The translations under genes were made by a program, and so were the position numbers. The notes under the pieces are model-generated. The model was given only the letters and a program-made list of their open reading frames with translations. It searched no databases and was not told the DNA's origin. From the IMG/VR virus record IMGVR_UViG_3300036987_000451, positions 1-34,448 of that record: a stretch of DNA of 34,448 nucleotides; one strand, 5' to 3'. This document shows positions 11,978 through 34,448 of the stretch, in pieces. This DNA comes from a virus. Lineage: Duplodnaviria; Caudoviricetes. Position 1 is the stretch's first letter, and each line of letters starts with the position of its first letter.

Positions 11978-11994
11978 CGTGTCCCCTCCGCGGA

Positions 11995-12044: not shown

Positions 12045-12052
12045 GCCGGGAA

Positions 12053-13000: not shown

Positions 13001-13013
13001 GCGCTTCCCTCCA

Positions 13014-13049
13014 CCGGTTCAGTGCCCGGTTCAGTGCCCGATCAGTGGC
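13014..13049. repeat. 12-bp tandem repeat CCGGTTCAGTGC x2 plus a degenerate third copy
   Basis: Copies at 13014-13025 and 13026-13037, then CCGATCAGTGGC containing the upstream gene's stop codon. Confidence 0.8.
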
Positions 13050-13593
13050 GGAGCAGGACCTCGACGAACTCACCGGCCCCGCCAGAGGCCTCGAGCGCGT
13101 CGGCGAAGACGAACTGGGGCAGCTCCCCGCCGGACAGCGCGGCCTGCGCCGTCGTGATCGGCAGCACCCCGGCCGCGCTGAGGGCGACCAGCCCCTCTGC
13201 CGCGCTGATCACGGCCCCGTTGGCCGCGGCGCTGGTGACCGGGGTATCCCCGGCGTCCACGGTCAGCTTGGTGTCGTCCACGGTGACCGCGATCTGGGTC
13301 AGATCCGTGGCCGCCGTCACCGCCGCGGCCAGGCTGTCCGCCGCGACCGCCCGGCCATGGGCGTCGACCCGGAGCGCTGCGCCCCGGGCGAACGCGCCGC
13401 CGGTCTCGATGATCGCGGTGCCCTTGGCCACCACGGAGGCGTCCTGCCCGTCCGCCACCCCGAAGGTGGCCACGCCCATCACCTTCTGCCCCGCGGACGA
13501 GGCCTGCGCCCCGTCGAAGCCCACCGCCCGCAGCGCGGCGATCGCTCCACTCGCCATCACCGTGAGCGTCAGCAGACTGATTGCCTGTCGCAT
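13042..13593 (-). CDS. Capsid decoration/cement protein (DUF2190-like) with internal insertion (183 aa)
   Basis: GTAIIETGGAF..G..L..DA.GRAV and ALEA..AGEFVEVLL motifs. ATG at 13593 follows the protease stop. Confidence 0.8.
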   Translation of the reverse strand: MRQAISLLTLTVMASGAIAALRAVGFDGAQASSAGQKVMGVATFGVADGQDASVVAKGTAIIETGGAFARGAALRVDAHGRAVAADSLAAAVTAATDLTQIAVTVDDTKLTVDAGDTPVTSAAANGAVISAAEGLVALSAAGVLPITTAQAALSGGELPQFVFADALEASGGAGEFVEVLLRH

Positions 13594-13594
13594 C

Positions 13595-14749
13595 TCAACC
13601 CTCCTCACCCACAGCCGCCAGCGCGGTGTGGAAATCCACCTGGTGGGCGGCCATGTGGGCCCGGATCCGGTGTGCCCGCGCCGCGCCGACCACGCTGTAG
13701 CCCGAAGGGACGGCGAATGCGGCCGTGGCGCCGTCCGCCTCGGGGGCGGACAGCTCCCCGTAGTGCACCTGCACCGGCAGTCGGCCGCACCAGTCCTTGA
13801 ACCACGCCAGCGCGGAGGGCGCCTCGCCGCCGGCGAACTGCACGGTCTGCGCGTCGTCCAGGGACGCGGCGAAGGCCACCAGCCCGGGGCTGTCCGCGGG
13901 CAGCAGCACTCCCCGCTGGACCAGCTCGGCGGCGAAGGCCGCCATCTCGTCCAGTCGGCGCCGCACCGCCTGGCGCGCCTGCTCCTCCCGCTGCGCCGTC
14001 TCCCGGGCGGCCAGGGCCTGCTCCCGCTCGGCCAGCGCCTGCTCCCGGGCGGCCAGCGCGTCCCCGTCGGGCTCTGCGGCGGGCGGAGTGGGCTGCGGCG
14101 GGGCGGGCGGAGGGGGCGGGGGCGTCGCGTCCGGGGACGCCGCGTAGGCCGGCGCCGGCTCGGCCGCCGCATCGGGCCGCAGCGCCTCCTCCTGGAGCTG
14201 GTCCACCTGCCAGGAGGGGATCACCTCGTCCGCCGTCTCCATGCCGAACTTGGCGACGAAGAACTCCCGCAGCCGACGCCACATCCCCGCCTGCTGGCGA
14301 TCCATCCAGTCGCCGAACTCGATGAGCTCCCCGGCGTCGTCGCCGGCGAAGGCGGCCGAGCGGAGCCCGAGCACCGCGGGCGGGGTCGCGCCCAAGAAGC
14401 CCACGTGGCGCAGCGAGTACTGCCCGGGGCGGGGGTTGCGGGGATGGTTCGGTGCGAAGAACGCGACGCTGAGGTGCTTGAAGCGCCCTTCGTTGACCAG
14501 CGCCGCGAACTGGGGGTCGACCTGCTGCGGCTCTGCCTCCAGCACGCCGTCGACCACCCGCAGCCCCCGCACCCAGCCATAGGCCGGAGCGTCGGTCCGT
14601 GGGTGGCCCACCACCAGCGGGGCCTCATAGCTCGTCGGGTCGTAGCCGGCGGCGATCTGTTCGAGCTGCTCCACCGAGAACGTCAGCTCCCGACCGTCCA
14701 TTGCCCGATGCGTGCCTGCCTTGAAGATCTGCAACATCGCACTCCTCAC
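13595..14749 (-). CDS. Mu gpI-like prohead protease/scaffold
   Basis: IFKAGTH, APLVVGHP...PAYGWV and LRHVGFLGA.PPAV.GL motifs. Pro-rich linker and coiled-coil C-terminal half. Confidence 0.92.
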   Translation of the reverse strand: MRSAMLQIFKAGTHRAMDGRELTFSVEQLEQIAAGYDPTSYEAPLVVGHPRTDAPAYGWVRGLRVVDGVLEAEPQQVDPQFAALVNEGRFKHLSVAFFAPNHPRNPRPGQYSLRHVGFLGATPPAVLGLRSAAFAGDDAGELIEFGDWMDRQQAGMWRRLREFFVAKFGMETADEVIPSWQVDQLQEEALRPDAAAEPAPAYAASPDATPPPPPPAPPQPTPPAAEPDGDALAAREQALAEREQALAARETAQREEQARQAVRRRLDEMAAFAAELVQRGVLLPADSPGLVAFAASLDDAQTVQFAGGEAPSALAWFKDWCGRLPVQVHYGELSAPEADGATAAFAVPSGYSVVGAARAHRIRAHMAAHQVDFHTALAAVGEEG

Positions 14750-19580: not shown

Positions 19581-19609
19581 TTGACACTCTCAACCGCGAG
19601 TTGTACCGT
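19581..19609 (+). promoter_or_regulatory. Rightward early (transposition operon) promoter with operator in spacer
   Basis: TTGACA (19581-19586), 17 nt, TACCGT (19604-19609). Operator CAACCGCGAGTTG at 19591-19603. Confidence 0.8.
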
Positions 19610-19651
19610 ACAACTGCCGGACGGAAGAGCGGCCCCGTCAGGGAGGAGTTC

Positions 19652-20575
19652 ATGCGGTACACCGACCACACCAAGACCCACATCGTCGATGCCTTCCTGA
19701 CCACCCCGCGGGAGCGCTCCCAGCGGCGCCGGATCCTGGCCTTCATCGCCGCCTACAACGCGGGCGACGTCGAGGTGCCGGCCGACGTGCGCGGAGAGTG
19801 CCCGAAGCTGGTCGAGACCACCCTCGCCCTGTGGGTGCGGGCGCGGGCGGCCGTCGAGGCGGAGCGGGCGGCGGTCGCGCCGTCCCCGGACCTGCCGGAG
19901 CCGGCCCCTGCACCGGCACCGGCGCCGGCCCCCGAACCGGCTGTCCTGCCCGTGACCGCGATCCACCGCTTCGAGGGCCAGCGCCTCACCACCGTCGAGC
20001 ACCAGGGACAGCCTTGCTGGGTCGCCCGGGAGGTCGGAGCGGCGCTGGGGTACGGCGACGAAGGCGGGGGCTTCAGCAAGAAGGTCGCGGCGGACTGGGC
20101 GGAGGACTTCACCGAGGGCGAGGACTTCTACCGCGTGACCGGGGATTGCCTTGCTGCTCTCGGTCAACTTGGTGGGGGCGAAACGCCCCCACCAAACCCC
20201 CGCGGCGGCAACCACCGCGACCTCCTCCTCCTCACCGAACAGGGCGTGTGGCTGGGCTGCATCCTGAGCCGGAAGCCCGCCGGGCGGCGGCTGCGCCGCT
20301 GGCTGGCTCGTGAGGTGCTGCCGTCACTGCGGTCGACGGGGAGCTACGCGCTGGGGCCCGGGGGGGCGGTCGCGCAGACCAAGCCGCCGCGGCGGGTGCC
20401 GGCGGACCTGGAGACGATGGCGCCCGAGGACCGCTGGTGGCGGGTGCAGCAGTTGCGGGAGCTGACGGGGCACCAGGCTGCGCTGGGGCTGCTGAGCCGT
20501 GAGGAGCAGCAACTGCGGCTGGACCTGGCTGCGTCGATCACGGCGGGCGTGGCGGTGGGGGGGTGTCATGGGTGA
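19652..20575 (+). CDS. BRO-N (antirepressor-like) protein with extra N-terminal transposase-like domain (307 aa)
   Basis: GGAGGAG RBS. F.G..L..V...G.PCWVA.EVG.ALGY, LLTEQG...SRKP...RRWLA.EVLPSLR.TGSY motifs, and a PAPAPA linker. Confidence 0.88.
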   Translation: MRYTDHTKTHIVDAFLTTPRERSQRRRILAFIAAYNAGDVEVPADVRGECPKLVETTLALWVRARAAVEAERAAVAPSPDLPEPAPAPAPAPAPEPAVLPVTAIHRFEGQRLTTVEHQGQPCWVAREVGAALGYGDEGGGFSKKVAADWAEDFTEGEDFYRVTGDCLAALGQLGGGETPPPNPRGGNHRDLLLLTEQGVWLGCILSRKPAGRRLRRWLAREVLPSLRSTGSYALGPGGAVAQTKPPRRVPADLETMAPEDRWWRVQQLRELTGHQAALGLLSREEQQLRLDLAASITAGVAVGGCHG

Positions 20576-21344: not shown

Positions 21345-21706
21345 TCGACCAACCCTGGCCGGTCCGCGGTCGCGGTCCGGAGGTGATCCCCCACCTGGTC
21401 GCCCGGCTCGACGCCGGCGAGTTCGCCGAGACGATCCGCATCAACTACCCCCTCGACACGCGCGGCCGGGCGCGGCTGGAGCTGCTGCTTAAGGTCCAGC
21501 TCGTGGTGAGCGCGGTGCTGGCGGAGGAACTCGGGCTCGACCTGCGGACCGAGCTGCTCGGGCGCCACGCGGTGGGGCAGGAGCGGTACGGCATGGCGCT
21601 GCGGCCGGGCAACGGCCGCAACGCGCTGCGCGATGGCCTGGAGGAGGGGCTCGACCAGTGCGCCTACCTGCAGCAGGCGCTGCTGGAGCTGGAGGGACGT
21701 CGATGA
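21341..21706 (+). CDS. Phage protein with possible all-alpha NTP-pyrophosphatase (MazG-like) motif (121 aa)
   Basis: G.ERYG..L...NGR.AL.D..EE.LD...YL. Coupled to the transposase by ATGA. Confidence 0.55.
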   Translation: MIDQPWPVRGRGPEVIPHLVARLDAGEFAETIRINYPLDTRGRARLELLLKVQLVVSAVLAEELGLDLRTELLGRHAVGQERYGMALRPGNGRNALRDGLEEGLDQCAYLQQALLELEGRR

Positions 21707-23649
21707 GCGCCGCGGCCCAGCTCCCCCAACTGCCCGGCGAGGCGACGGTCAACGCACGAGCGGCGATCCTGACGGCCTGGTTGGACTTCCACCGGGGCGC
21801 GGGGCTGTCGGTCTACGCGTCGATGACCCGCTTCGCCGAGCTGTACTCGACCGGTGCGATCGAGGTCGCGCCGGCGGAGGTGCGGGCGGAGTACCCCGAC
21901 GTGAGCCGGGGGACGTTGGCGCGGTGGTACGAGGCGCAGCAGGCCGGCGGGGTGGCGGCGCTGAAGCCGGCCTACGGCAATCGGCTGGGCCAGGGGATCA
22001 TCGACCGGCAGCCGGAGATCCGGGACTGCGTCATCGGGGAGCTGGTGACGCGGCCGCACGTGCGGGCTTCGCAGGTGATGCAAGCGCTGGTGGCCCGCTT
22101 CGGCCGGGGGCGGCGCCCAGACCTGGAGCTGCCGTGTGATCGGACGCTGCGGGGCTGGATCGCGGAGTACCGGGCGCAGCACGCGGCGACGCTGCTGTCG
22201 ATCGCCAATCCGGACGCCTGGAAGTCCAAGTACATGGTGGCGCTCGGCGACGCGGCCGGGGGCGTGGTGCGGCTGAACCAGCGCTGGGAGCTGGACAGCT
22301 CGCCCGCGGACGTGATGCTCGAGGACGGCCGCCACTGCCTCATCGGCGTGATCGATGTCTACAGCCGGCGGCTGCGCCACCTCGTCGCCAAGACCTCGCG
22401 CTCGACCGCGATCGGGCTGCTGCTGCGGCGGGCGCTGCTGGACTGGGGGACGCCGGAGCAGGCGGTCACGGACCAGGGGCAGGACTACGTCAGCGTCTAT
22501 CTGACCCGGGTGCTGCTGGATCTCGGCATCGAGCAGAAGCTCTGCACGAAGTTCTCGCCGGAACAGAAGCCCTTCATTGAGCGGTCGTTCCGCACCCTCG
22601 CCCACGACCTGGTGGAGCTGCTGCCGGGCTACGTCGGCCACAACGTGGTCGACCGCAAGGCGATCGAGAGCCGCAAGTCGTTCGCCCAGCGGCTGTGCGA
22701 GCGGGACGGCGCGCCGGTGGAGCTGCCGCTGACCGCGGCGAAGCTGCAGGAGTTCTGCGACACCTGGGACAACGACCTCTACGCCCGGCGGCCCCACGAG
22801 GGGCTGAACGGCCGGACCCCCTTCGAGGTGGCCGCGGCCTGGCGTGAGCCGGTGCGCCGAGTGACCGACGCGCGGGCCCTGGACCTGTTGCTGGCGGAGC
22901 CGGCCGACGGGGGGGTGCGGGTGGTTCAGAAGAAGGGTGTCCGTGTCGAGGGCGCGTGGTTCGGCGCGGTCGACCAGCCCGAGGTCGGCACCGAGGTGCG
23001 GGTGAAGCTGGACCCGACCGACATCGGCCGGGTGATGCTCTACTCGACGGCCAACGGGACGTTCCTCTGCGTGGCGCAGAACCTGGACCGCCTGGGCGCG
23101 ATGCCCCGCGCGGAGCTGGCGCTGCGCGCGAAGCAGCACCAGCGGCAACAGACCAACGCCCGTCGCCGGGAGGCCAAGATCCTCGCGCAGGCGGCCGGCA
23201 GCGCCCACACGGTCGAGCTGATCCTGGAGGACGCCCGCCGGGAGGCGGCGAAGCTGGTCGCGCTGCCGGGGCCGAGCACGGCCCACGAGACCCCGGCGCT
23301 GGCCGCGGCGGCGGCCGCCGCGGACGCGCGGGAGCAGGAGCAGGCTCGCCGCGCGGCGGCGCCGGTGGCGGTGCAGGTGGTCAACGAGCCGGCCAACGTG
23401 GTCGGCGCGGACGAGCTGGCCCGCCGTCGGGCGCTGCAGGTGCCCGCCGCGCCGCCGCGCACGCGGCGGGAGGACTGCGAGACGGAGTGGGCGCTGGCGC
23501 TGTGGTGCGCCGAGGAGCTGGCGGACGGGCGGGCGCTCGAGGCGGAGGACGCGAGCTGGTGGACGGCCTGGCGTCGCCGCTACCCCGAGCGGGCGGCCGG
23601 TGTGGACGAGGTGATCGAGCAGCGCTTCGGGAGGTGCGCGGCTCGGTGA
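21703..23649 (+). CDS. Mu A-like DDE transposase (648 aa)
   Basis: Catalytic triad in WELDSSPAD, VTDQGQDY and KPFIERSF. Y..RPH.GL.GRTP and Mu-type C-terminal domain. Confidence 0.95.
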   Translation: MSAAAQLPQLPGEATVNARAAILTAWLDFHRGAGLSVYASMTRFAELYSTGAIEVAPAEVRAEYPDVSRGTLARWYEAQQAGGVAALKPAYGNRLGQGIIDRQPEIRDCVIGELVTRPHVRASQVMQALVARFGRGRRPDLELPCDRTLRGWIAEYRAQHAATLLSIANPDAWKSKYMVALGDAAGGVVRLNQRWELDSSPADVMLEDGRHCLIGVIDVYSRRLRHLVAKTSRSTAIGLLLRRALLDWGTPEQAVTDQGQDYVSVYLTRVLLDLGIEQKLCTKFSPEQKPFIERSFRTLAHDLVELLPGYVGHNVVDRKAIESRKSFAQRLCERDGAPVELPLTAAKLQEFCDTWDNDLYARRPHEGLNGRTPFEVAAAWREPVRRVTDARALDLLLAEPADGGVRVVQKKGVRVEGAWFGAVDQPEVGTEVRVKLDPTDIGRVMLYSTANGTFLCVAQNLDRLGAMPRAELALRAKQHQRQQTNARRREAKILAQAAGSAHTVELILEDARREAAKLVALPGPSTAHETPALAAAAAAADAREQEQARRAAAPVAVQVVNEPANVVGADELARRRALQVPAAPPRTRREDCETEWALALWCAEELADGRALEAEDASWWTAWRRRYPERAAGVDEVIEQRFGRCAAR

Positions 23650-23666
23650 ACGACGGAGGAGGGACC

Positions 23667-24377
23667 ATGAGACACGCAGTGGCGATGGTGCGCAACGTGA
23701 CCCGGCTGGCCGAGGCGGTCGACGGATTGCGGAGCCGGGACGCCGGGACCCCGGGGATGGGGTTGGTCTATGGCTACACGGGGGTCGGCAAGAGCACCGC
23801 GGTCGCCTGGATGCTGAACCAGGTGAACGGGCTGCAGACCCGCGCCGCGGCCTGCTGGACGCCGACCGCGATGCTGGGTGCGCTGATGCACGAGCTGGGG
23901 GCGGCCCCGCTCTCACGGGCGATGCGGATGGTGGACCACATCGTGGGCGAGCTGCGCCGCACCGGGCGGCCGGTGTTCGTCGATGAGGCCGACTATCTGC
24001 TGCAGGACGGGCGGATGCTGGAGACGCTGCGAGACATCCACGACCTCTCGGGCGCGCCGGTCATCCTGATCGGGATGGAGGGCATCGAGCGTCGGCTGGT
24101 CCACCGGCCGCAGCTCGCCGGGCGGGTGTCCCAGTGGGTCGAGTTCCGGGCCGCGGGGCGGGATGACGCCCGGATCCTGGCGGACAAGGTGTGCGAGGTC
24201 CAGATCGCGGAGGACCTGCTGGAGCGGCTGTGGACGGCCAGCAAGGGGAGCATGCGGTTGATGGTCGTCGGCCTGAGCCGGATCGAGGCCTACGCCCGGG
24301 CGCAGCGGCTGGCCGCGGTGGACGAGGAGCGGTGGGGCAACCGGCAGCTCTTCCTGCCCCAGCCGGAGGGACGATGA
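23667..24377 (+). CDS. Mu B-like AAA+ transposition ATPase (236 aa)
   Basis: Walker A GYTGVGKS, Walker B VFVDEAD, LRDIHD and ILIGM motifs. Confidence 0.95.
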   Translation: MRHAVAMVRNVTRLAEAVDGLRSRDAGTPGMGLVYGYTGVGKSTAVAWMLNQVNGLQTRAAACWTPTAMLGALMHELGAAPLSRAMRMVDHIVGELRRTGRPVFVDEADYLLQDGRMLETLRDIHDLSGAPVILIGMEGIERRLVHRPQLAGRVSQWVEFRAAGRDDARILADKVCEVQIAEDLLERLWTASKGSMRLMVVGLSRIEAYARAQRLAAVDEERWGNRQLFLPQPEGR

Positions 24378-24721
24378 GCCCCGGCCGCAAGCGGATGGTG
24401 CAGCTCGCCGGGCTGCGGCAGCGGGCGTGGAACAGCATGCGCTACCTGGGGCGCTTCGAACTCGGCCAGCTCGTGGCGACCAGCGGGTTGGACTACGAGA
24501 ACAGCCAGGAGTACGTGCGGCGCTTGACCGGCGCCGGGTTTTTACGGCTGGAACGCCCAGCGTGGGGCAATCGCCCCGCGGTCTGGCGGCTGGTGCGCAA
24601 CAGCGGGCCGGCCGCGCCCCGGGCCAAGGAGCGGCAGGGCAGGTGGTACGTCTTGGATCCGAACGATCAACGCATCTACGGCGACAACGGAGAGCCGGTC
24701 GAAGGAGGTGGTGAGGCATGA
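24374..24721 (+). CDS. Conserved transposable-phage wHTH protein (115 aa)
   Basis: RQRAWNSMR...F...L...Y...L..AGFL...WRL..NSGP.AP...DPN pattern. ATGA coupling. Confidence 0.75.
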   Translation: MSPGRKRMVQLAGLRQRAWNSMRYLGRFELGQLVATSGLDYENSQEYVRRLTGAGFLRLERPAWGNRPAVWRLVRNSGPAAPRAKERQGRWYVLDPNDQRIYGDNGEPVEGGGEA

Positions 24722-25242
24722 GCAAGACGATGAAGGTCAAGAGCGAGTCCACGGGGGAGGTCCCCCAGAGCAAGGAGCAGGTCTCCGAGGCGATCGGCGA
24801 GATCGGCCGGTTGCAGCGTGAGCGACAGCGGCTGGAGACCGCGATGAACGACGAAATGGCACTGATCAAGGCCCGCTATGAGGCCGAGGCCGGACCGCAC
24901 GGCGACCGCATCAAGGTGCTGACCCGGGGCGTGCAGGCGTGGTGCGAGGCGCACCGGGCCGAGCTGACGACAAACGGCAAGACCAAGACCGTGGCGCTGG
25001 CCGACGGCGAGGTGCGGTGGCGGACCTGCCCGCCGCGCGTGACGATCAAGGCGCAGGACGTGGTGCTGGCGACGCTGCGCCGGCTGGGGCTGACCCAGTT
25101 CATCCGGGCGAAGGAGGAGGTCAACAAGGAGGCGCTGCTGCTGGAGCCCGAGGCGGCCTCGTCGATCAAGGGGATCACCATCAGCCAGAAGGAGGAGTTC
25201 ATCATCGTCCCCCACGAGTCCCAGCTCGAGGAGGTGGTCTGA
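24718..25242 (+). CDS. gam: Mu Gam-like host-nuclease inhibitor
   Basis: WCEAHRAELT..GKTKT..L..GEVRWR..PP and FIR.KEEVNKEALL motifs. Confidence 0.95.
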   Translation: MSKTMKVKSESTGEVPQSKEQVSEAIGEIGRLQRERQRLETAMNDEMALIKARYEAEAGPHGDRIKVLTRGVQAWCEAHRAELTTNGKTKTVALADGEVRWRTCPPRVTIKAQDVVLATLRRLGLTQFIRAKEEVNKEALLLEPEAASSIKGITISQKEEFIIVPHESQLEEVV

Positions 25243-25243
25243 G

Positions 25244-25693
25244 ATGGCCGCCCGGCCCGACCCGCTGCGGCGGCGTGAGCTGGCGGCGATCCACGCCGCG
25301 GTGAAGCAGCTCGGCCTGGACGACGACACCTACCGCGCCCTGCTGCGGCAGCAGTGCAACGTGGACTCGGCGGCCGGGTTGGACGGGCCCGGGCGGCACC
25401 GCATCCTCGACGCGCTGCGGGCGCGGGGCTGGCAGCCGCCCAAGAGCCCCCCCCGCAGCGGTCCGGGCGCGGCCCAGGCGGCGAAGATTCGGGCGCTGTG
25501 GGGAGAGCTGGAGCGACGGGGGCTGGTGCGGGACGGCAGCGTGAAGGCGCTGCGGTCGTTCGTGCGGCGCATGACCGGCGTGGAGGAGGGCGAGTGGCTG
25601 GACGGCCCCCGGGCCAACGTGGTGATCGAGGCGCTCAAGGGCTGGCTGCACCGAGGGGAGCGGCCGCGGGAGGCGAGCGATGGCACGGCCTGA
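25244..25693 (+). CDS. gemA: GemA/gp16-like regulator (DUF1018)
   Basis: IH.A.KQLGLDDDTYR.LL, KIRALW, AL.SFV.RMTGV and VIEALK.W motifs. Confidence 0.92.
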   Translation: MAARPDPLRRRELAAIHAAVKQLGLDDDTYRALLRQQCNVDSAAGLDGPGRHRILDALRARGWQPPKSPPRSGPGAAQAAKIRALWGELERRGLVRDGSVKALRSFVRRMTGVEEGEWLDGPRANVVIEALKGWLHRGERPREASDGTA

Positions 25694-26018
25694 ATACCCC
25701 AGGGTGCTGGAGGACCTCGCGACGGACATCACGCTCGCGCTGATGGACGCCGGCATCGACGACCCGCTGGCAGCCCGGGTGGGCGTGGCCGCGGTGGAGT
25801 CGCTGCGGCGGCTCTGGGGGGGGACCCAGATCTACGTCCCCCGCGGCAGCCGGGTCGCCGTCGCGGCGCGCAACGCGGAGATCTTCCGCGAACTCGCCGC
25901 GGCTGATACCGTGGAGGCGCGGGCGGAGCTGGCCCGGCGCCACGGGATCTCCGAGCGGCACCTGCGCCGGTTGATCGGTGCGCTCCAGCTCGATCCAGCA
26001 GCTCACGAGTCCAAGTAA
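25680..26018 (+). CDS. mor: Mor/C-family transcription activator
   Basis: WGG.QIYVP.G, RN.EIF and ELARRHGISER...RLI motifs. Confidence 0.92.
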   Translation: MARPEYPRVLEDLATDITLALMDAGIDDPLAARVGVAAVESLRRLWGGTQIYVPRGSRVAVAARNAEIFRELAAADTVEARAELARRHGISERHLRRLIGALQLDPAAHESK

Positions 26019-26062
26019 CCCCGCCCGTTCTCCTCAAACAGCGGAATCAGAATACGAATCAA

Positions 26063-26105
26063 GGACAAGGATCCTTGGATCTCCGCGCCCTCACGCTCAT
26101 ACAGT
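26063..26105 (+). promoter_or_regulatory. Late promoter of the lysis/packaging operon with putative Mor-type box
   Basis: GGACAAGGATCCTTGGAT (26063-26080), 19 nt, TACAGT (26100-26105). No consensus -35. Confidence 0.75.
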
Positions 26106-26122
26106 GTGTGCGGAGGTCGGAA

Positions 26123-27043
26123 ATGCAGCGTCGATGGCTGGAATTCACCGTTGCCCTATTCATCGTCGTTGCGAATCACCTGATCAATGGAGGAATCTCT
26201 CATGCAGATCGACTGGAAGAACAGCCTGCTGCGCGTCTGGCCCTGGATGGCCCTGGCGCTGGTGACCCTGGCGCTGATGGCGCTGCTGGTCCCCCATCAG
26301 TTGCCCGCCCTGCTGTGGAACCTGGGGAAGGTCTCGCTGGGGGTGCACCTCGGCTACTGGGCGGACCGGCACCTGTTCCCCTACGCCCGGCCGCACCGGC
26401 CGGTCATCGCCTGCAACCGTTCGACCGCGATGATCCGGCGGGCGATCTTGGTGGCTGCGGTGGTGATCGCGCTGGGGCTCGGGGTCTGATCCCCACCGGC
26501 GCCCGGCGCCACCGCCGGGAGCTGACGCGGCTGGCCGCGGTGTACTGGGGGCTGGACGCGCCGGTGGCCCGGATGGCCGCCCAGATCCACCTCGAGTCCG
26601 CCTGGCAGCCCGCCGCCCGCAACCCCATCGCCAGTGGCCTCGGGCAGTTCACCGCGGGGACCGCGGCGACGATGGCCCGCCTCTACCCCGAGCTACACCC
26701 CGCGGCTCCGTTCGACTCGGGGTGGTCGCTGCGCGCAGTGGTGATCTACGACCTCCACCTCCACCGGGGGCTACGTCCCCGGGGCGCCGCGGCGCTCGAC
26801 GACTGCGCCCGCTGGGCGATGGTGCTCGCCGCGTACAACGGCGGCCCCGGCTGGATCGAGCGGGACCGCACCCTGACCACCCGGCGCGGCGGGGACCCGG
26901 ACCGCTGGTGGGGGCACGTCGCCGCGCACTCCGGCCGGGCGCCCCACCACCACCGGCGCAATCGCTGGTACGTGGTCCGGGTGCTCTGCGAGTTGGAGCG
27001 CCGCTACCTCGTCGCCGGCTGGCCGGGGGAGGGCTGCCCGTGA
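26123..27043 (+). CDS. Endolysin, lytic transglycosylase (SLT), with N-terminal signal-like segment (306 aa; start uncertain)
   Basis: AQIHLES (catalytic Glu), GLGQF and AAYNGG motifs. GGAGG RBS before ATG 26123. Confidence 0.85.
   Translation: MQRRWLEFTVALFIVVANHLINGGISHADRLEEQPAARLALDGPGAGDPGADGAAGPPSVARPAVEPGEGLAGGAPRLLGGPAPVPLRPAAPAGHRLQPFDRDDPAGDLGGCGGDRAGARGLIPTGARRHRRELTRLAAVYWGLDAPVARMAAQIHLESAWQPAARNPIASGLGQFTAGTAATMARLYPELHPAAPFDSGWSLRAVVIYDLHLHRGLRPRGAAALDDCARWAMVLAAYNGGPGWIERDRTLTTRRGGDPDRWWGHVAAHSGRAPHHHRRNRWYVVRVLCELERRYLVAGWPGEGCP
26202..26489 (+). CDS. Putative 2/3-TM holin (95 aa), nested in the endolysin frame
   Basis: GGAGG RBS, hydrophobic helices, GYW.DR.LFPYARP and MIRRAI.V motifs. 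Confidence 0.88.
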   Translation: MQIDWKNSLLRVWPWMALALVTLALMALLVPHQLPALLWNLGKVSLGVHLGYWADRHLFPYARPHRPVIACNRSTAMIRRAILVAAVVIALGLGV

Positions 27044-27459
27044 GCCGCTGGCTGCTCCAGCGCCTGATCGTGGCCCTCGGCGCCGCGCTGCTCGTCGCGA
27101 TGGCCGTGGTCGCCGCGCGTCAGCAGCTCGAGCTCGCCGCGCTGCGGGGTGCGGTGACCGAGTGCGCGGGGCAGCGCGACGCGGCGCAGGCCCGGGTCGG
27201 GGAGCTGCACATCCGCCTGGGCTCGCTGGAGGCCCTCCAGGCCGTGCAGGAGGCCGCGCTGCGGGAGCAGACGGCACTGGCCACCGAGCAGCGCCAGCGG
27301 GCCGCCAGGGCGACGAGCGAGGCCGGAGCGGAGCGACGACGGGCGGAGGCACGGGTGGCCGCGTTCCGGGCGATGCCGGTGCCGTCCGGCTGCGAGGCGG
27401 CGGTCCGATGGGGCGCGGGGCAGGGACGAGCCTTCGGGCTCGACTGGAGCGGGCAGTGA
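27040..27459 (+). CDS. Inner-membrane spanin (Rz-like, 139 aa)
   Basis: N-terminal TM helix, long coiled coil, C-terminal Cys. GTGA coupling. Confidence 0.75.
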   Translation: MSRWLLQRLIVALGAALLVAMAVVAARQQLELAALRGAVTECAGQRDAAQARVGELHIRLGSLEALQAVQEAALREQTALATEQRQRAARATSEAGAERRRAEARVAAFRAMPVPSGCEAAVRWGAGQGRAFGLDWSGQ

Positions 27460-27761
27460 GGCGGGTCGTGACGCTGGCCCTCGTCGCAGGGGTCGCCCTG
27501 ACCGCCTGCGCCCCGGCGACCCGGCCGCAGCCGGCCCCGCCGCCGGAGCTGCGGGTGGTGCGCGTGCCCGTGCCCGTGCCCTGCGTCGCGCCCCCGCTGC
27601 CGCAGCGTCCGCGCCTGGCGCTCGCCTCGCTGCCTGCGGAGGCCGGCCCGGCGGAGGTGCTGCGGGCCTACCTGATGACGTGCGAGCAGCTCGCCGGCTA
27701 CGCCCGGGAGCTGGAGACGATTGCGGGGGCCTGCGGCACCCCGACAGAGGAGGGGCGATGA
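27456..27761 (+). CDS. Outer-membrane spanin lipoprotein (Rz1-like, 101 aa)
   Basis: Lipobox LTAC, Pro-rich V.VPVPVPC and C-terminal Cys. Confidence 0.8.
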   Translation: MRRVVTLALVAGVALTACAPATRPQPAPPPELRVVRVPVPVPCVAPPLPQRPRLALASLPAEAGPAEVLRAYLMTCEQLAGYARELETIAGACGTPTEEGR

Positions 27762-28072
27762 ATAGCTGGCAGGTCGTGGCCGTCGTGGTCGCCATCGTGA
27801 CGCTCTACAGCGCGATCGTGATCTGGGCCGTGAAGTCGATCACCCGGCTGGCGATGACGGTCTATGACAGGCGACTCGACGCACTGGAGGGACGCCAGGA
27901 TCGCCACGAACGACAGGATGCGGAGTTCAGGGAGCAGCTCCCTGACCGCTTCATGCTGCGGGAGGACTGGAACGCGTTTCGCGATCAGGTGCTCATGATG
28001 ACCTCGATCGTGGACCACAAGCTGGACGTCCTGCTCTCCCGAATCCCACGCAAGTTGGAGGACGACGAATGA
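27758..28072 (+). CDS. Membrane-anchored coiled-coil protein at the Mu gp25 position (104 aa)
   Basis: N-terminal TM helix, LP.RF..REDW and KLD motifs. Synteny. Confidence 0.7.
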   Translation: MNSWQVVAVVVAIVTLYSAIVIWAVKSITRLAMTVYDRRLDALEGRQDRHERQDAEFREQLPDRFMLREDWNAFRDQVLMMTSIVDHKLDVLLSRIPRKLEDDE

Positions 28073-28389
28073 GCGACGACGAGCTGACCCCGAACCAGAT
28101 CCGCGCACTGGCCCGCCGCATGAGCCGTTGGCGGATTCTCCGCATCCTCTACATGGGCCGGCCGATCGGCGCGAACGAAACGATCATCCTCCACGCCCTG
28201 TCCAGGGGCGACTTCGAGGTGACGAAGCAAAGCGTGCGCAACGAGCTGGAGTACCTCGCCGGCCTGAAGTTGATCTCGCTCGCCCAGGGGCACACTTGGC
28301 TGGCAGAGATCCTCCCCGACGGCGTGGACGTAGTCGAGTACACCACCGAGGCGCCGGCCGGCATCCTGCGGCCCGAGCAGCAGGGCTGA
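28069..28389 (+). CDS. Mu gp26-like wHTH protein
   Basis: RW.IL..L...RP.GA.E, VRNELEYL and GVDVVEYT motifs. Confidence 0.8.
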   Translation: MSDDELTPNQIRALARRMSRWRILRILYMGRPIGANETIILHALSRGDFEVTKQSVRNELEYLAGLKLISLAQGHTWLAEILPDGVDVVEYTTEAPAGILRPEQQG

Positions 28390-28913
28390 TGCCGCCGCGC
28401 AGCAAGGTGCTCAGCCTCCCCGAGGAGGACCGGAAGTGGCTGGACGCCGCGCTCGTCGCCGGCCACTTCCAGGACTACCGGGCGCTGGCGGAGGAGCTGC
28501 AGCGTCGCGGCTATGAGATCTCCCACGCCGCGGTGTGGCGCTACGGCACCGAGTTCGAGCGAAGCCTCGGTGCGGTCAAGCTGGCCACCGAGCAGGCGCG
28601 GGCGATCGCCGAGGCCGCCGGCGACGATGAGGGAGCGCTCAACGATGCGGTCATCCGGCTGATCCAGACCAAGTCCTTCGAGGTGCTGACGAAGTTGGCG
28701 ACGGAGGACATCGACGAGTCCTTCGTCGACCTCGGCACGATGCTCTCCCGGCTGGGCAAGGTGGCGATCGACCAAAAGAAGTGGGCGGCCACCGCGCGGG
28801 AGAAGATCGCCAAGAAGTTGGAGGCGCTGGAGGAGCAGGGCAAGCAGGGCAAGGGATCCATCGACCCGGAGACGGTGCGCCGTGTCCGGGAAGAGATCTA
28901 CGGGCTGGTGTGA
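28389..28913 (+). CDS. Mu gp27-like small terminase (DUF3486, 174 aa)
   Basis: MPPRSKV..LP, GYEIS..AV.RYG and REEIYGL motifs. Confidence 0.88.
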   Translation: MPPRSKVLSLPEEDRKWLDAALVAGHFQDYRALAEELQRRGYEISHAAVWRYGTEFERSLGAVKLATEQARAIAEAAGDDEGALNDAVIRLIQTKSFEVLTKLATEDIDESFVDLGTMLSRLGKVAIDQKKWAATAREKIAKKLEALEEQGKQGKGSIDPETVRRVREEIYGLV

Positions 28914-30352
28914 TGGCCGCCCGACGCACGCGCAAGGACGCCACCCTGCCCGCGGCCGCCGTCCCGACGGGGCCAGCGGTGCCCCTGTTCGCCTACCAGA
29001 GGACGTGGTTCAGCAACCGCAGCCGGTTCAAGGTCGGAATGTTCTCCCGCCAGACCGGCAAGACCTTCACCTCCACCCTGGAGATCGTTGACGACGTGAT
29101 GGAGGCCGAGGCGCACGGCCGGCGGGCACGCTGGGTGATCCTCTCCCGGGGGGAACGGCAAGCCAAGGAGGCGATGGATGAGGGCATCAAGCGCCACCTC
29201 GCCGCCTACTGCCAAGCCTTCGAGAGCTTCGGCTACGATTGGTCGGCGGACTGGACCAACGGCGTCAAGTACAAGGCGCTCGAGGTCGTGTTGCCCGGGG
29301 GCAGCCGCATCACCGCGCTGCCCGCCAACCCGGACACCGCCCGTGGATTCAGCGCCAATGTGCTCCTGGATGAGTTCGGCTTCCACCAAGACTCCCGGGC
29401 GATCTGGAAGGCGCTGTTCCCCGTCATCACCCGGGGCTACCGCATCATCGTGATCAGCACCCCAAACGGGAAGAACAACAAGTTCTATGAGCTGATCACC
29501 ACCAAGGATCCCCTCTGGTACAAGCAGACGGTGGACATCTATCAGGCCGTGGCCCAGGGCTATCCGGCCAACGTCGATGAGCTGCGGCGCGGCCTGGCCG
29601 ATGAGGACGGCTGGGCCCAGGAGTACGAGCTGCAGTTCCTGGACGAGGCGACCGCCTGGCTGCCCTTCGACCTGATCACCGCCGCCGAGCACGAGCAGGC
29701 CGGCCAGCCCGAGCTCTACCAGGGGGGGCCCTGCTTCGTCGGCGTCGACATCGGCCGCCGCAACGACCTCTGGACCTGCTGGGTGGACGAGCAGATCGGC
29801 GACGTCGCCTGGTGCCGTGAGCTGATCGAGCTGCGCAACGCCCCCTTTGAGCAGCAGGACGCCGAGCTGGACCGGGTGTTCGCCAGCTACAACGTCGTCC
29901 GCTGCTGCATGGACCAGACTGGCATGGGGGAAAAGCCGGTGGAGGACGCGCAGCGCCGCTACGGCAGCGAGCGCGTCGAGGGCGTGCTCTTCACCGGGCC
30001 CAACAAGCTGACCCTCGCCGTCCAGGGCAAGCAGCGCTTCCAGGACCAGCGCAAGCGGATCCCGATCAGCGACGTGCTGCGGCGGGACCTGCACAAGCTG
30101 CGCAAGGTGGCCGGCCCGACGGGCGCTCCCCGCTTCGTGGCCGAACGGGACGACGCAGGCCACGCCGACCGGACCTGGGCCTGCTTCCTCGCGGACAACG
30201 CCGCAGCCGGGACGGTGATCCCGATCGAATTCCAGGCGCTGGGGCACCTCCGCCTGGCCGCGACCGGGGACCATGAGTTGGGCGGCTACCACACCACCGA
30301 CACCGGCTGGGGCACCCTCGCCGGCGGACGGCTCGACCTGCGGGGCTTCTGA
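28913..30352 (+). CDS. Terminase large subunit (479 aa)
   Basis: SRQTGKT, VLLDEF, ISTPNG, GVDIGR and GHADR.WA motifs. Confidence 0.95.
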   Translation: MAARRTRKDATLPAAAVPTGPAVPLFAYQRTWFSNRSRFKVGMFSRQTGKTFTSTLEIVDDVMEAEAHGRRARWVILSRGERQAKEAMDEGIKRHLAAYCQAFESFGYDWSADWTNGVKYKALEVVLPGGSRITALPANPDTARGFSANVLLDEFGFHQDSRAIWKALFPVITRGYRIIVISTPNGKNNKFYELITTKDPLWYKQTVDIYQAVAQGYPANVDELRRGLADEDGWAQEYELQFLDEATAWLPFDLITAAEHEQAGQPELYQGGPCFVGVDIGRRNDLWTCWVDEQIGDVAWCRELIELRNAPFEQQDAELDRVFASYNVVRCCMDQTGMGEKPVEDAQRRYGSERVEGVLFTGPNKLTLAVQGKQRFQDQRKRIPISDVLRRDLHKLRKVAGPTGAPRFVAERDDAGHADRTWACFLADNAAAGTVIPIEFQALGHLRLAATGDHELGGYHTTDTGWGTLAGGRLDLRGF

Positions 30353-31809
30353 TGGCCGACGACGAGCGCGACGCACCGCCCGAGTTCCGGGAGATCGCCA
30401 CCACCCGGGATGGACTCGACATCACCCGCGGCTACGTCGAGGGCCTCGGCCTGCTGGCGCCCGGCGACAGCGTGCTGCGAGAGCACGGCAGCGACTACGA
30501 CGTCTACCGCGACATCCTGCGGGACGACCAGGTCAAGCCGGTCTGGGAGCAGCGGCGCCTCGCCGTCGTGTCGCGGGAGTGGGAGGTGATCCCCGGCGGC
30601 AAGCGGGCCGTCGATCGGGATGCGGCTGATGCGCTGCGGGAGGACCTCGAGCAGCTCAACTGGGACGCGGTGACGGACAAGATGCTCTACGGCGTGGTCT
30701 ATGGCTACGCCGTCGCCGAGTGCCTCTACGCCCCGGGCCGCGGCCGGGTGCGGCTGGCCGGGATCAAGGTGCGGCGTCAGAAGCGCTTCGCCTTCACCCC
30801 AATGGGCGACGAGCTGCGCCTGCTCACCATGACGGCGCCGCAGGGCATCGCGCTGCCGCCGAGGAAGTTCTGGACGTTCACGGTCGGATCGGACCACGAT
30901 GACGAGCCTTACGGACTCGGACTCGGCCATTGGTGGTTCTGGCCGGTGTTCTTCAAGCGCGGCACGACCCGGCTGTGGCTGTACGCGCTGGAGAAGTCCG
31001 GTGCCCCGACCGCCGTCGGGGAGTTCCCGCCCAATGCGCGGCCCGAGGAGAAGGCCCGGCTGCTGCGCACCCTCGAGGCGCTCCAGCGCGACAGCGGCGT
31101 CATCCTGCCCCAGGGCTTCAGGATCTCGCTGCTCGAGGCGCTGAAGTACGCCAGCACCGAGCACGCGGCGCTCTATGACCGCATGAACGCCGCGATCAGC
31201 AAGATCGGCCTGGGCCAGACGATGACCACGGACGACGGCAGCAGCATGAGCCAGGCGCAGGTGCACTGGAGCGTGCGTCAGGACCTCGTGGCGGCCGACG
31301 CTTCGGTGCTGTGCGAGAGCTTCAACCGCGGCCCGGCGCGCTGGCTGACGGCATGGAACTTCCCCAACGCCACGCCCCCCAAGGTCTGGCGGCGGCTGGA
31401 TGAGGCCCCGGATCTCAAGGCGCTCAGCGAGGTCCAGGCGAACGTCTACAGGTTCGGGTACCGGCCGACGCTCCCGGCTGTGATCTCGACCTATGGCGGG
31501 GAGTGGGAGCGCGTCGACGCCCCGGCCGCAGAGCCCCCCCCCGGACCTGCCTTCGCCGGCGACGAATCGGATCCGGACCCCGTCGATCCGCTCAGCGACC
31601 AGCTCGAAGAGGCAGCCCGTCCCCTGATGGATGGGCTGCTGGAGCCCGTGCGGGCGCTGCTGGCGCGTGCCGGCTCGCTCGAAGAGTTCCGTGACGGGCT
31701 CCTGGATGCCTACGCGCAGCAGCCGATCGGCGAGCTCGGCGCCTTGCTCCAGCAGGCGCTGACCGTGGCGGAGCTGACCGGGCGCTGGAAGGTGGATCGT
31801 GGCGAGTGA
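30352..31809 (+). CDS. Portal protein (Mu gp29, DUF935)
   Basis: D.QV...EQRRLAV, YGYAV.E, PYGLGLG, ISK..LGQTMTT and A.VH..VR motifs. Confidence 0.93.
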   Translation: MADDERDAPPEFREIATTRDGLDITRGYVEGLGLLAPGDSVLREHGSDYDVYRDILRDDQVKPVWEQRRLAVVSREWEVIPGGKRAVDRDAADALREDLEQLNWDAVTDKMLYGVVYGYAVAECLYAPGRGRVRLAGIKVRRQKRFAFTPMGDELRLLTMTAPQGIALPPRKFWTFTVGSDHDDEPYGLGLGHWWFWPVFFKRGTTRLWLYALEKSGAPTAVGEFPPNARPEEKARLLRTLEALQRDSGVILPQGFRISLLEALKYASTEHAALYDRMNAAISKIGLGQTMTTDDGSSMSQAQVHWSVRQDLVAADASVLCESFNRGPARWLTAWNFPNATPPKVWRRLDEAPDLKALSEVQANVYRFGYRPTLPAVISTYGGEWERVDAPAAEPPPGPAFAGDESDPDPVDPLSDQLEEAARPLMDGLLEPVRALLARAGSLEEFRDGLLDAYAQQPIGELGALLQQALTVAELTGRWKVDRGE

Positions 31810-33109
31810 GGCCTCCCCCATCGGCGTCCCCTTCGACGAGGCGATCAAGGCCTTCGAGCAACGCAAGGACCTGCTCCCCACCCGCCACTGGACGGATCTC
31901 TGGGAGGGGATGCACGCCCGCGCCTTCGTCGTCGCCGGCGCCACCGACGGCGAGCTGCTCGCCGGACTGCGCAAGGCGGTCGACGACGCGATCACCAAGG
32001 GCACGACGCTGGAGCAGTTCCGCCAAGAGTTCGACCAGCTCGTCAGCAAGCACGGCTGGAGCCACTCCGGGACGCCGGGCTGGCGCTCGCGGGTCATCTA
32101 CGAGACGAACCTCCGCACGGCCTATCAGGCGGGACGGTGGAAGCAGCAGACCTCGCCGGAGATGCTGCAGCGCCGCCCCTACTGGGAGTATGTGCACGGC
32201 GACAGCGTGCACCCGCGCCCGGAGCACCGACGGTGGCACGGCCAGGTGCTGCGCTGGGACGACCCCTGGTGGGCGGAGCACTACCCCCCGAACGGCTGGG
32301 GCTGCAAGTGCACCGTCTACGCGCTGAATGAGCGGGACCTGAAGCGACGGGGCAAGGACGGCCCCGACACTGCGCCCGCGGTCACGCGCCGGGACTGGAC
32401 TCCGCCCAACCCGATGCCGGGGAAGAAGTCCATCTCCGTGCCGGAGGGCGTCGATCCGGGGTGGGCGTACAACCCGGGTGAGGCGGCTTGGGGGAAGGAT
32501 TGGGCTCAACAGCTCATCGACCGAGGACCGTACAAAGAGGAGTCTGGATTCCTGCCCAAGGATCTGGAGCTGGAGCTCAAGCCCAAAGCCACCCGCCCGG
32601 CACCGGCCACGCTGGGACCACGTGCTCACACGCCGGAGCAATATCGGGAGGCGATTCGTCCGGTGCTCGGCATGTACACCGACCCCACCGGGGCGGTCAT
32701 CAACGTCACCGACGCGCTCGTCGACCACATCCTGGCCGATCCGAAGCGGATGGACGACCGAGCGCGGGAGCGGTACTTCCCATGGATCCCCGACATCATC
32801 CAGGCTCCAAGAGAGATCTGGCTGGGATTCCTGCGCCACGACTCGGGGTACTACTCACTCCGGCGTCGCTATTTTGCCGTGTACCAGATGCCCGGTGGGG
32901 AGGATCAGGTCGCTGGGGTCGTGGTGGACACGGTCAACAACCAGTTCGTTGCCCTGACTGCGTTCCAGGCGACTGACCCGACCGGTGGAAGGCTGCGCTA
33001 CGGAAGGCTGCTGTGGCAGGAAAAAGGCCGCACCGTCGCCGACCCGACGGCCGCCCCACGCCCCCCGGTTGGGGTCGGCCCCGGGAAGGCTGGCATGGGT
33101 GAAGAGTAG
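31799..33109 (+). CDS. Mu gpF (gp30)-like head morphogenesis protein with C-terminal extension (PBECR2-like nuclease fold)
   Basis: RAFVVAGA, IYETNLRTAY.AGR and YPPNGWGC.C.V motifs. C-terminal DPTG...RERY..I..P.EIW...RRRY...TAF. Confidence 0.88.
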   Translation: MASEASPIGVPFDEAIKAFEQRKDLLPTRHWTDLWEGMHARAFVVAGATDGELLAGLRKAVDDAITKGTTLEQFRQEFDQLVSKHGWSHSGTPGWRSRVIYETNLRTAYQAGRWKQQTSPEMLQRRPYWEYVHGDSVHPRPEHRRWHGQVLRWDDPWWAEHYPPNGWGCKCTVYALNERDLKRRGKDGPDTAPAVTRRDWTPPNPMPGKKSISVPEGVDPGWAYNPGEAAWGKDWAQQLIDRGPYKEESGFLPKDLELELKPKATRPAPATLGPRAHTPEQYREAIRPVLGMYTDPTGAVINVTDALVDHILADPKRMDDRARERYFPWIPDIIQAPREIWLGFLRHDSGYYSLRRRYFAVYQMPGGEDQVAGVVVDTVNNQFVALTAFQATDPTGGRLRYGRLLWQEKGRTVADPTAAPRPPVGVGPGKAGMGEE

Positions 33110-33111
33110 CC

Positions 33112-33657
33112 ATGTCCGGCACCTCGATCAAGATCGACGTCGATGACGCAGAGTTCAACGCGGCCATCAGACAGCTGCTCGAGCGCCTGGAGAGCCCGCG
33201 GGCAGCCTTCGCCGACATCGGGGAGTACCTCGTCCGCAGCGTCGAGGAGCGCTTTGAGACCGAGATTGCGCCCGACGGCACACCGTGGGCTCCACTCCAC
33301 GCCGGCACCAAGGCGGCGAAGAAGCACCCCAAGATCCTGACGGAGAGCCGGGAGCTGCGACGCTCCATCGTGCATCAGGAGACGGACACCGCGCTACTGA
33401 TCGGGACGAACAAGATCTATGCCGCCATCCACCAGCTCGGCGGCACCACCAAGGCGCACGAGATTCGCCCCCGTCATAAGAAGGCCCTGGCCTGGCCCGG
33501 CATGATGGGCGGTGGGGACGACGCCCATCCGGTCGGCGCCGTCCAGCACCCCGGCTCCAAGATCCCGGCGCGGCCCTTCCTCGGGCTAAGCCCCGCGGAT
33601 CGCGAGGAGGCCCTGGCGATCCTGGCCGACTATCTGAACCCGGACGCTGGACAATGA
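33112..33657 (+). CDS. Mu gpG-like virion morphogenesis protein
   Basis: RF..E.APDG.PWAPL, IGTNKIYAAIHQLGG and IPARPFLGLS motifs. Confidence 0.93.
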   Translation: MSGTSIKIDVDDAEFNAAIRQLLERLESPRAAFADIGEYLVRSVEERFETEIAPDGTPWAPLHAGTKAAKKHPKILTESRELRRSIVHQETDTALLIGTNKIYAAIHQLGGTTKAHEIRPRHKKALAWPGMMGGGDDAHPVGAVQHPGSKIPARPFLGLSPADREEALAILADYLNPDAGQ

Positions 33658-33790
33658 CGAAATTCATGGTGCGCTGCAACAAGGAGCGTCGTCCGAGGAA
33701 TGTCCAGCCAGACGCTGGCGTTGGTCGCACCCCCTCTGGCGCCATGGCCCGACGGGGCGGCCGAGCCTGCGCACACAAAATATTTCTTCG

Positions 33791-33803
33791 TAATAACTTG
33801 AGC
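33791..33803. promoter_or_regulatory. Possible IHF-binding site near the right end
   Basis: TAATAACTTGAGC is close to YAANNNNTTGATW and is preceded by an AT-rich tract in otherwise GC-rich DNA. Confidence 0.4.
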
Positions 33804-33855
33804 GATTTCATGGCATTGGCGGAATGTGTCAAAAACCTGACAGATTGGCATCTTG

Positions 33856-33962
33856 GGATGCGCGACCACACCCCCGGACGAGCCCCGGACCCGCATCACG
33901 CCTAGTCGCGAGTCACCTCGCCTCGTCGCGCTTGGCGCGCGCATTCCATCCTTCCGGTCACA
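33856..33962 (-). repeat. Right end: terminal inverted repeat and internal end-type repeat
   Basis: 33938-33962 is the inverted match to 42-66. GGATGCGCGA at 33856-33865 is identical to 81-90 in direct orientation. Confidence 0.85.
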
Positions 33963-34295
33963 GATCGAGGGCAGCAGCAGCCAGCGCAGATCGAGGCGGA
34001 TCAGCCCCTCGTCCGCGGCCTCGCTCGTCGGCTCGACCCGCAGCAGCTCGACCTCGCTGAAGGAGAGGAGCGCCCCCCGCGCCATCAGCTCGTCGAGGGT
34101 GGGGCGCAGGGAGGGATCCAGCCAGCGCTCGAGCTGCTCCCAGCTCTTCCAGCGGATGCCCTCCTGCAGCTCACGAGCCACCTCGGCCAGCGCGCGCACG
34201 CGGCCGGCGCGCTGGGGGGCCGCGCAGGCCAGCGGCGCCAGTCCGCCCAGGAGGAGCAGCAGCGCGAGGAGCCGAGCGGTGGCGCCGGGGGTCAT
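33963..34295 (-). pseudogene. 5' part of host lipoprotein gene interrupted by the prophage
   Basis: Signal peptide with lipobox-like PLAC. Protein-like sequence ends at WLLLPSI, exactly at the CA end. Confidence 0.8.
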
Positions 34296-34447
34296 GGCCG
34301 TCGCCGGGCGAGCACCGCACGCAGGCGGTCGAGGTCGGTACGCCCCACGCCGCCGGTCGCGAGCAGCCCGAGGAGGTACACCACCGGCGCGCCGGCGGCC
34401 AGCGCCAGCGCAACAGGCAGGGAGGGGCGCGGCAGCAGCGCCGTGGC
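34292..34447 (-). CDS. 3' end of a host membrane protein (possibly polysaccharide flippase-like), partial
   Basis: Frame ATALLPRPSLPVALALAAGAPVVYLLGLLATGGVGRTDLDRLRAVLARRRP*. Stop overlaps the lipoprotein ATG. Confidence 0.55.
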   Translation of the reverse strand, partial: ATALLPRPSLPVALALAAGAPVVYLLGLLATGGVGRTDLDRLRAVLARRRP

Positions 34448-34448
34448 C

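Follow-up and report, generated by a model that had tools for sequence, protein, structure and literature searches.

A putative holin gene lies within the endolysin reading frame of a Mu-like phage, between a predicted export signal and the catalytic domain

The window, the whole 34,448-nucleotide stretch of DNA that was analyzed, belongs to a Mu-like transposable phage, with profile matches for DDE transposase, AAA ATPase, Gam, GemA, Mor, gp27, terminase, portal, and MuF. The gene order runs from the transposase, ATPase, Gam, GemA, and mor genes through the lysis genes to Mu gp27, terminase, portal, and MuF, and the tail sheath and baseplate genes are on the opposite strand to the lysis genes. 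Unlike in Mu, the late genes form two divergent arms: baseplate, tail, tape-measure, sheath, and scaffold genes occupy 2002-14172 (minus strand), and lysis, terminase, portal, and MuF genes occupy 21658-34448 (plus strand). An Ant-like anti-repressor gene (19601-20575) lies 5' of the transposase gene. The lysis cassette and its surroundings comprise the following features.

25680..26018, plus strand: Mor-family late transcription activator gene (PF08765, E=6.8e-17), directly upstream of the lysis cassette
26061..26105, plus strand: likely Mor-type late promoter, with a dyad AAGGA..TCCTT at 26061-26076 (palindrome 26066-26077) and a -10-like TACAGT at 26100-26105
26112..26116, plus strand: ribosome-binding site (RBS) GGAGG of the long endolysin frame, Shine-Dalgarno (SD) duplex -10.2 kcal/mol
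26123..27043, plus strand: endolysin long ORF of 306 aa (leader, linker, and lytic transglycosylase), ATG to TGA with zero internal stops
26123..26206, plus strand: leader of 28 aa, with a basic n-region, a hydrophobic helix, and a GG-I-S-H-A end; predicted export signal (cleaved or SAR-like)
26189..26193, plus strand: holin RBS GGAGG, SD duplex -9.3 kcal/mol, doubling as Gly-Gly codons near the leader C terminus
26202..26489, plus strand: putative holin of 95 aa, PF13272 Holin_2-3, ATG to TGA in the +1 frame of the endolysin ORF
residues 29-122 of the endolysin ORF (94 aa), plus strand: linker, the other reading of the holin gene
26486..26491, plus strand: junction CTG-ATC overlapping the holin TGA, candidate coupled re-initiation site
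26489..27043, plus strand: lytic transglycosylase domain, Glu158 invariant and Cys228/Cys305 nearly so
27040..27459, plus strand: likely inner-membrane spanin, with an N-terminal hydrophobic segment and an Ala/Gln/Arg-rich body
27456..27761, plus strand: likely outer-membrane spanin lipoprotein, with a lipobox-like LTAC, Pro-rich

The central feature of this cassette is the placement of the putative holin gene wholly within the endolysin ORF, between the leader and the catalytic domain. A sequence-only reading of the stretch had claimed such nesting, and it is borne out by the 306-aa frame, uninterrupted by stops, and the PF13272 match in its +1 frame. The match has E=3.5e-16 and 59.8 bits, versus a curated cut-off of 27, and the protein also matches phrog_1528 and has hydrophobic windows at residues 8-39 and 73-95. 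PF13272 is only a putative holin family, and the function in forming membrane lesions is predicted. Read in the endolysin frame, the same DNA encodes a linker dominated by Gly (21%), Ala (19%), and Pro (16%).

Both ORFs of the nested pair have their own start signals, as in layouts of the Rz/Rz1 type. The claim that ATG 26123 carries a GGAGG near the late-promoter start also holds, with transcription inferred to begin near 26111-26112. SD duplexes further along the frame are weaker (CTG 26486 and ATC 26489, -4.7 kcal/mol each; GTG 26540, -3.5 kcal/mol), all energies being computed against an anti-SD motif. The earlier statement that no RBS-backed start follows the holin is correct in this respect, but two further candidate start codons lie in the endolysin frame: TTG 26075 (SD -5.1), which precedes the inferred start of transcription, and GTG 26315, within the holin gene. 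The ATC codon at 26489 specifies the Ile of the family-conserved Ile-Pro core start and shares one base with the holin TGA. A public gene call (P0004) starts the endolysin at GTG 26540, with loss of the first core helix. There is no sign of an assembly error at the junction: a 45x contig in run X1, which may be the source of the window itself, shows zero differences across 25600-27600, and a 151-nt piece of run X2, from a second study, covers the junction, again with zero differences.

The C-terminal part of the endolysin is assigned to the SLT-type lytic transglycosylases, with an MltF-like character and a predicted activity of peptidoglycan cleavage. Residues 122-298 match phrog_669 (E=6.8e-34), the PF01464 score of 20.1 bits falls just under the cut-off of 21.3, and the profile matches include MltF and Slt70. 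In an AlphaFold model, residues 2-23 form a helix, residues 27-120 are of low confidence and mostly without secondary structure, and pLDDT exceeds 90 from residue 121; a Foldseek search with this model returns MltF as top matches (E 2e-5, lysozyme-like fold). Glu158, at the end of the first core helix, is present in 58/58 aligned rows and is followed by S159, and the SLT motifs G172-L-x-Q175-F176 (GLxQF) and Y238-N-G240 (AYNxG) are also present. Cys228 and Cys305 occur together in 55 of the 58 rows, and this pair suggests folding in the periplasm.

The two genes that follow are probably spanins and overlap by 4 nt. The first has zero Pfam or PHROG matches, so its identity is taken from sequence and position; the second has weak PHROG matches, to families of unknown function. 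The next gene (27758-28072) encodes a 104-aa protein with a single N-terminal hydrophobic segment, in the same position as the DUF2730 (releasin-family) gene of phage JBD25; its sole match among Pfam and PHROG profiles is phrog_462, with none to DUF2730.

We gathered SLT loci from phage, viral, metagenome, and genome collections, three scans contributing the best 80 of 424, 375, and 556 matches. Among the matches listed, 267 loci were examined, the window included and 7 junction-pattern matches left out, and 237 of these have a holin match. Within the 237, the SLT core abuts the holin stop only in the window and in L030, L121, and L126; L030 and L121 are identical over the 450 nt compared, which leaves three distinct abutting cases. 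In L040 the core follows the holin stop by 15 nt, and the gap in the other 232 loci among the matches listed is at least 56 nt and typically contains a start and a signal. Dropping duplicates, rows without a clear holin start, and rows with short flank kept 130 of the 237 loci. An [AVST]-x-A signal end is found in 118 of the 126 distinct ordinary loci among the matches listed, and in 75/126 the SLT gene is already in the -1 frame of the holin.

The abutting loci are set apart by what lies in front of the holin. All of them (3/3) have an in-frame start upstream whose 11-residue hydropathy is 2.2-2.8, versus 0/126 ordinary loci among the matches listed (Fisher p=3e-6 if the loci were independent, which they are not); a hydrophobic upstream start in the other alternative frame occurs in 5/126 of the same ordinary loci. 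Conservation of the open frame in relatives had been proposed as a check, and it was found: L121/L030 and L126 lack stops in the linker frame and have hydrophobic leaders of their own. The L126 ORF, of 299-302 aa, opens with a predicted signal peptide and contains the holin in its +1 frame, and the public gene call P0093 already has the 299-aa long form. Its leader SD sites are weak (-3.3 and -6.8), a canonical GTG overlaps its holin TGA, and its holin RBS, as in the window, is also read as Gly-Gly codons of the leader. In L121 a leader of 21 codons, basic and then hydrophobic, occupies the same frame and has a GGAGG and a GTG start; zero in-frame ATG/GTG/TTG codons occur between this leader and codon 156. 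The L121 cassette follows tail-like genes rather than mor, a non-Mu context.

The three loci share 40-48 identical residues of 93-95 in their holins and 87-103 of ~182 in their SLT cores (about 50% identity). Given this divergence and the non-Mu context of L121, the layout has persisted. A quick tree places all three in one SLT clade (SH-aLRT 95), so they may have a single origin. P0006, which also falls in this clade, seems to retain a short leader of its own. P0005 (62%) is the closest protein and, known from the protein alone, is called with Met at the junction Ile; the clusters of P0005-P0008 and P0071 are singletons. L121 and L126 come from Myxococcota metagenome-assembled genomes. G001 and G002, the only two genomes of their Myxococcota class among those searched, both carry the nested cassette, and 399 of the 401 genomes searched in the phylum of G001 gave no match. 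Among the loci compared, L126 gives the best scores for the Gam, GemA, gp27, and 28069 genes of the window (45-55% identity), which hints at a related host for the window phage.

Searches of viral sequences yielded no further case. A single-sequence scan gave no match; scans of viral contigs for the junction pattern and motifs gave 0/7 further abutting loci in the first, 0/47 in the second (43 with a holin match), and 0/119 in the third (60 with a holin match, 39 with too little flank). A search of plasmids likewise gave no match. An annotated "membrane protein" ahead of the YPCBV-1 holin (L002:1605-2176) was considered as a leader and rejected, being a duplicated 5' part of the holin around an N, likely an assembly artefact.

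Several variants of these genes were seen along the way. The nested endolysin of L121:2111-3544, L030, and P0071 adds a C-terminal GDSL/SGNH-like domain, possibly a de-O-acetylase that would help the transglycosylase. In L040:2677-3570 an in-frame GTG comes immediately after the holin TAG and opens an SLT that lacks a signal, which would be either a cytoplasmic form or a read-through fusion. P0158 and P0245 (297 and 298 aa), known from proteins alone, are natural in-frame Holin_2-3 and SLT fusions, in which the last holin helix may serve as the export signal; such fusions would be another solution in the same family.

The window leader has a maximum 11-residue hydropathy of 2.54 and a net charge of +2, and n-region and h-region features of an export signal are found in 3/3 leaders (window, L121, and L126). 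Just 2 of 1617 candidate starts in the window, those of the leader and of the inner-membrane spanin, pass filters on SD, hydrophobicity, and charge that were chosen after the leader had been seen. In base shuffles of each leader, 0.6-1.8% of trials are both open and hydrophobic. A cleavage matrix trained on the family separates the three, with scores of -4.5 for the window (110 of 207 null N termini as high), 1.5 for L121 (30/207), and 10.3 for L126 (1/207). By sequence the L126 leader reads as a textbook signal peptide, ending V-Y-A. The window and L126 leaders both terminate in an S/V-x-A site; at the corresponding position L121 has no Ala, and its composition fits the SAR type.

The SHA cleavage-like site noted earlier is present in the window, but part of it is fixed by the RBS and ATG of the holin, which overlap it, so it is weaker evidence than it seems; Gly plus Ala at the GG..xA position also occurs in 15/126 ordinary loci among the matches listed. 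The helix contains Glu and Asn-His. Leader GC3 is 0.56, versus 0.88-1.0 at 13 of 14 other gene starts, and so resembles recently recruited or non-coding DNA. On balance, cleavage after GGISHA seems slightly likelier than SAR-like retention.

The late promoter is placed by geometry, since the family motif itself has no match in the window, where the dyad scores below 0 against the family Mor-box. The dyad centre lies ~32 nt before the -10 hexamer, the spacing of the family promoter in 54/126 ordinary loci among the matches listed, and no sigma-70 consensus promoter was found. The family promoter, present upstream of the holins in those 54 loci, consists of a conserved dyad CTGAA-N3-CTTCA and a TAACCT-like -10. 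In several ordinary loci the holin ATG lies ~6 nt after the -10, a spacing that suggests leaderless holin mRNAs.

How far does the open linker frame exceed chance? The sequence-only reading had proposed dual coding on the strength of a frame open back to ATG 26123. The frame is indeed without a stop, but in the window alone this is not beyond chance: it stays open in 0.47-0.78 of synonymous resamplings (GC3 near 0.97), and the same frame is open in 14 of 28 ordinary holins above 68% GC and in 2 of 61 under 62% GC. We therefore discarded the window's open frame as evidence, and the case rests on the leader and the relatives. L121 is equally uninformative (P 0.5-0.8). L126, at 54% GC, is the locus in which selection on the linker frame is visible, the other two frames carrying no information on it. 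There, 0 of 12 at-risk holin codons have the T that would put a stop into the linker frame, versus 3.4-4.7 expected, and the linker frame is open (P=0.014 with neighbor-gene codon usage, 0.001-0.004 with SLT-core usage). The same test on ordinary loci is calibrated and shows no depletion (T at 251 sites observed versus 259 expected).

Could the enzyme be made without the leader? Ribosomes that end at the holin TGA might re-initiate at the NTG or ATC of the junction and produce a 185-aa cytoplasmic endolysin, released through the holin lesions, with the upstream frame incidental or regulatory. An NTG overlaps the holin TGA in all three loci (CTG 26486 in the window, a canonical GTG in L126), an overlap that is not independent evidence because it is forced by the Val-stop end of the holin (GTN-TGA). 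P0005 is called from a Met at the junction position, L040 has a signal-less SLT with a GTG right after the holin stop, the codon usage of the window leader is atypical, and the junction lies within a predicted stem (z -1.76); coupled starts often lie in stems. Against this, CTG and ATC are poor starts (SD -3 to -4.7), the Cys pair in 55/58 rows points to periplasmic folding, and neither the hydrophobic leaders (3/3 abutting versus 0/126 ordinary loci among the matches listed) nor the stop avoidance in L126 is explained. We consider a purely cytoplasmic enzyme unlikely. Perhaps a re-initiated short form is made alongside the long one, a doubtful proposition but one compatible with the preferred reading; the junction Met of P0005 and the start in L040 indicate that a short form can exist in the family.

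A -1 ribosomal frameshift near the holin end would instead fuse holin to transglycosylase, with the last holin helix as the export signal. The in-frame fusions P0158 and P0245 are natural counterparts, and the junction leaves exactly this helix before the Ile-Pro core, but the X-XXY-YYZ heptamer is absent from the window and L126 holins, its one occurrence in L121 is ~230 nt before the stop, and a shift at the holin end needs neither an open frame through the whole holin nor an upstream leader, so that we hold this to be very improbable. Read-through of the holin TGA was dismissed as a route, as it would not enter the SLT frame. The long frame might also be mainly regulatory, its leader damping holin translation or acting as a membrane-anchored antiholin, with the enzyme a by-product or dependent on proteolytic release from the linker. 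The strong leader SD at the extreme 5' end of the inferred transcript, the weak hydrophobicity of the window and L121 leaders, and the constraint that the holin places on linker sequence would all suit such a role, which nevertheless appears highly unlikely: conserved RNA structure was not found over the leaders (z 0.03, -0.62, and 0.43), and the window and L121 have no other strong SLT start. That the cassette is simply defective, its endolysin start and signal deleted, would account for the missing signal-bearing gap of the 232 other loci among the matches listed, but it is scarcely credible given the same junction in three ~50% diverged loci, the intact catalytic Glu and Cys pair, and the selection on the L126 linker frame.

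We thus favor, with reasonable confidence, a functional dual-coded holin/endolysin cassette whose endolysin is predicted to be Sec-exported on a disordered linker. The dual coding first proposed from the window is supported by the shared junction, open frame, and leaders of the relatives, rather than by the window's open frame, which is at chance level. Because the window and L121 have no other strong SLT start, the enzyme most likely comes from the long form. Under this dual-coding reading, ribosomes would start at two sites on one late mRNA, ATG 26123 giving the 306-aa transglycosylase and ATG 26202, in the +1 frame, the holin. The leader would take the enzyme to the periplasm on its disordered linker, and the Cys pair would form a disulfide there. 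Like known exported endolysins, the enzyme would be kept in check until the membrane potential is collapsed by the holin, and the products of the spanin-like genes (27040-27761) would then break the outer membrane. Leader ribosomes would cross the holin RBS ~66 nt downstream of their start and could damp holin initiation.

The layout could have arisen when an SLT gene lost its own start and signal and recruited an upstream start. The path would be short, since the SLT of 75/126 ordinary loci is already placed in the -1 frame relative to the holin, and the holin GGAGG...ATG, read as Gly-Gly...His/Tyr-Ala in the leader frame, would supply a ready-made peptidase-like site. More tentatively, this may be the first bona fide holin nested in its cognate endolysin, with the holin's other frame as spacer, its RBS and ATG as peptidase site, and ribosome traffic setting holin dosage and lysis timing without an antiholin; we regard this fuller proposal as possible.

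The nested layout, so far confined to a single small lineage of phages, extends the range of lysis cassettes past the adjacent, fused, and spanin-embedded ones, and it shows how overprinting can yield a signal peptide and linker by a short path. It also provides a clean test of whether overlapping-frame translation times lysis, in that single-base changes silent for the holin would abolish just the long endolysin. Endolysins of this kind are cut short by gene callers (P0004; perhaps P0007, P0008, and P0071), so exported enzymes are misread as cytoplasmic. The phages of the relatives' Myxococcota class are barely sampled.

In the full-text literature searched, mostly outside subscription journals, the nested layout in this holin/SLT family is not described, and a holin inside an endolysin does not appear in the accessible portions of PMC3111421, PMC12894885, PMC12596118, PMC3118219, PMC4411677, and bioRxiv 10.1101/2025.11.12.688109. 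The same holin and SLT families occur in B3-like Pseudomonas transposable phages such as JBD25 (48% SLT identity), which also has spanin-like genes and Mu gp27 downstream. The SLT of these phages carries a start and signal of its own behind the holin stop; in the window the signal precedes the holin, with a 94-aa linker. The transglycosylase type of Pseudomonas Mu-like siphophages is judged SAR-bearing in the available text of PMC9239132. Among exported endolysins, fOg44 Lys44 has a cleaved signal, and P1 Lyz and phage 21 R are of the SAR type (PMC6116005, accessible sections). The window endolysin resembles these in its predicted N-terminal export signal, and its activation would likewise follow holin depolarization, but its spacer of ~95 residues is predicted to be disordered and is encoded by the holin gene itself, unlike theirs as far as these sections describe them. 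Long and short endolysin forms are described for Mycobacteriophage Ms6 (lysA384/lysA241; PMC3111421, same portions), a model for a possible start at the junction; the short form there uses an in-frame internal start with its own SD and has no holin inside.

The embedded spanin genes Rz/Rz1 of phage lambda are established (PMC6116005), and, to the extent covered there, the window layout is similar in that the inner lysis gene lies wholly within the outer one, in the +1 frame and with its own RBS. It differs in its partners: lambda Rz and Rz1 are spanins that form a complex, and the window pairs a holin with an endolysin, its own spanin-like genes overlapping by no more than the 4 nt noted above. 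The sequence-only reading had named Rz/Rz1 as the established embedded lysis genes, which misses S. aureus phage 187, where a holin-like gene is reported to lie out of frame inside ply187 (Loessner, Gaeng, and Scherer, 1999, J Bacteriol 181:4452, PMID 10419939). According to the available section of a later review (PMC6023083), Ply187 is most probably a virion-associated lysin, and the true phage 187 holin and endolysin are Orf63 and Orf16. The layout described here is a new form of embedded lysis genes, with this one contested precedent. Compared with phage 187, the nested gene of the window encodes a full-length PF13272 protein and belongs to a complete late lysis cassette with spanin-like genes, and the holin's other frame serves as a dedicated linker from leader to catalytic domain, a layout that recurs in three diverged loci.
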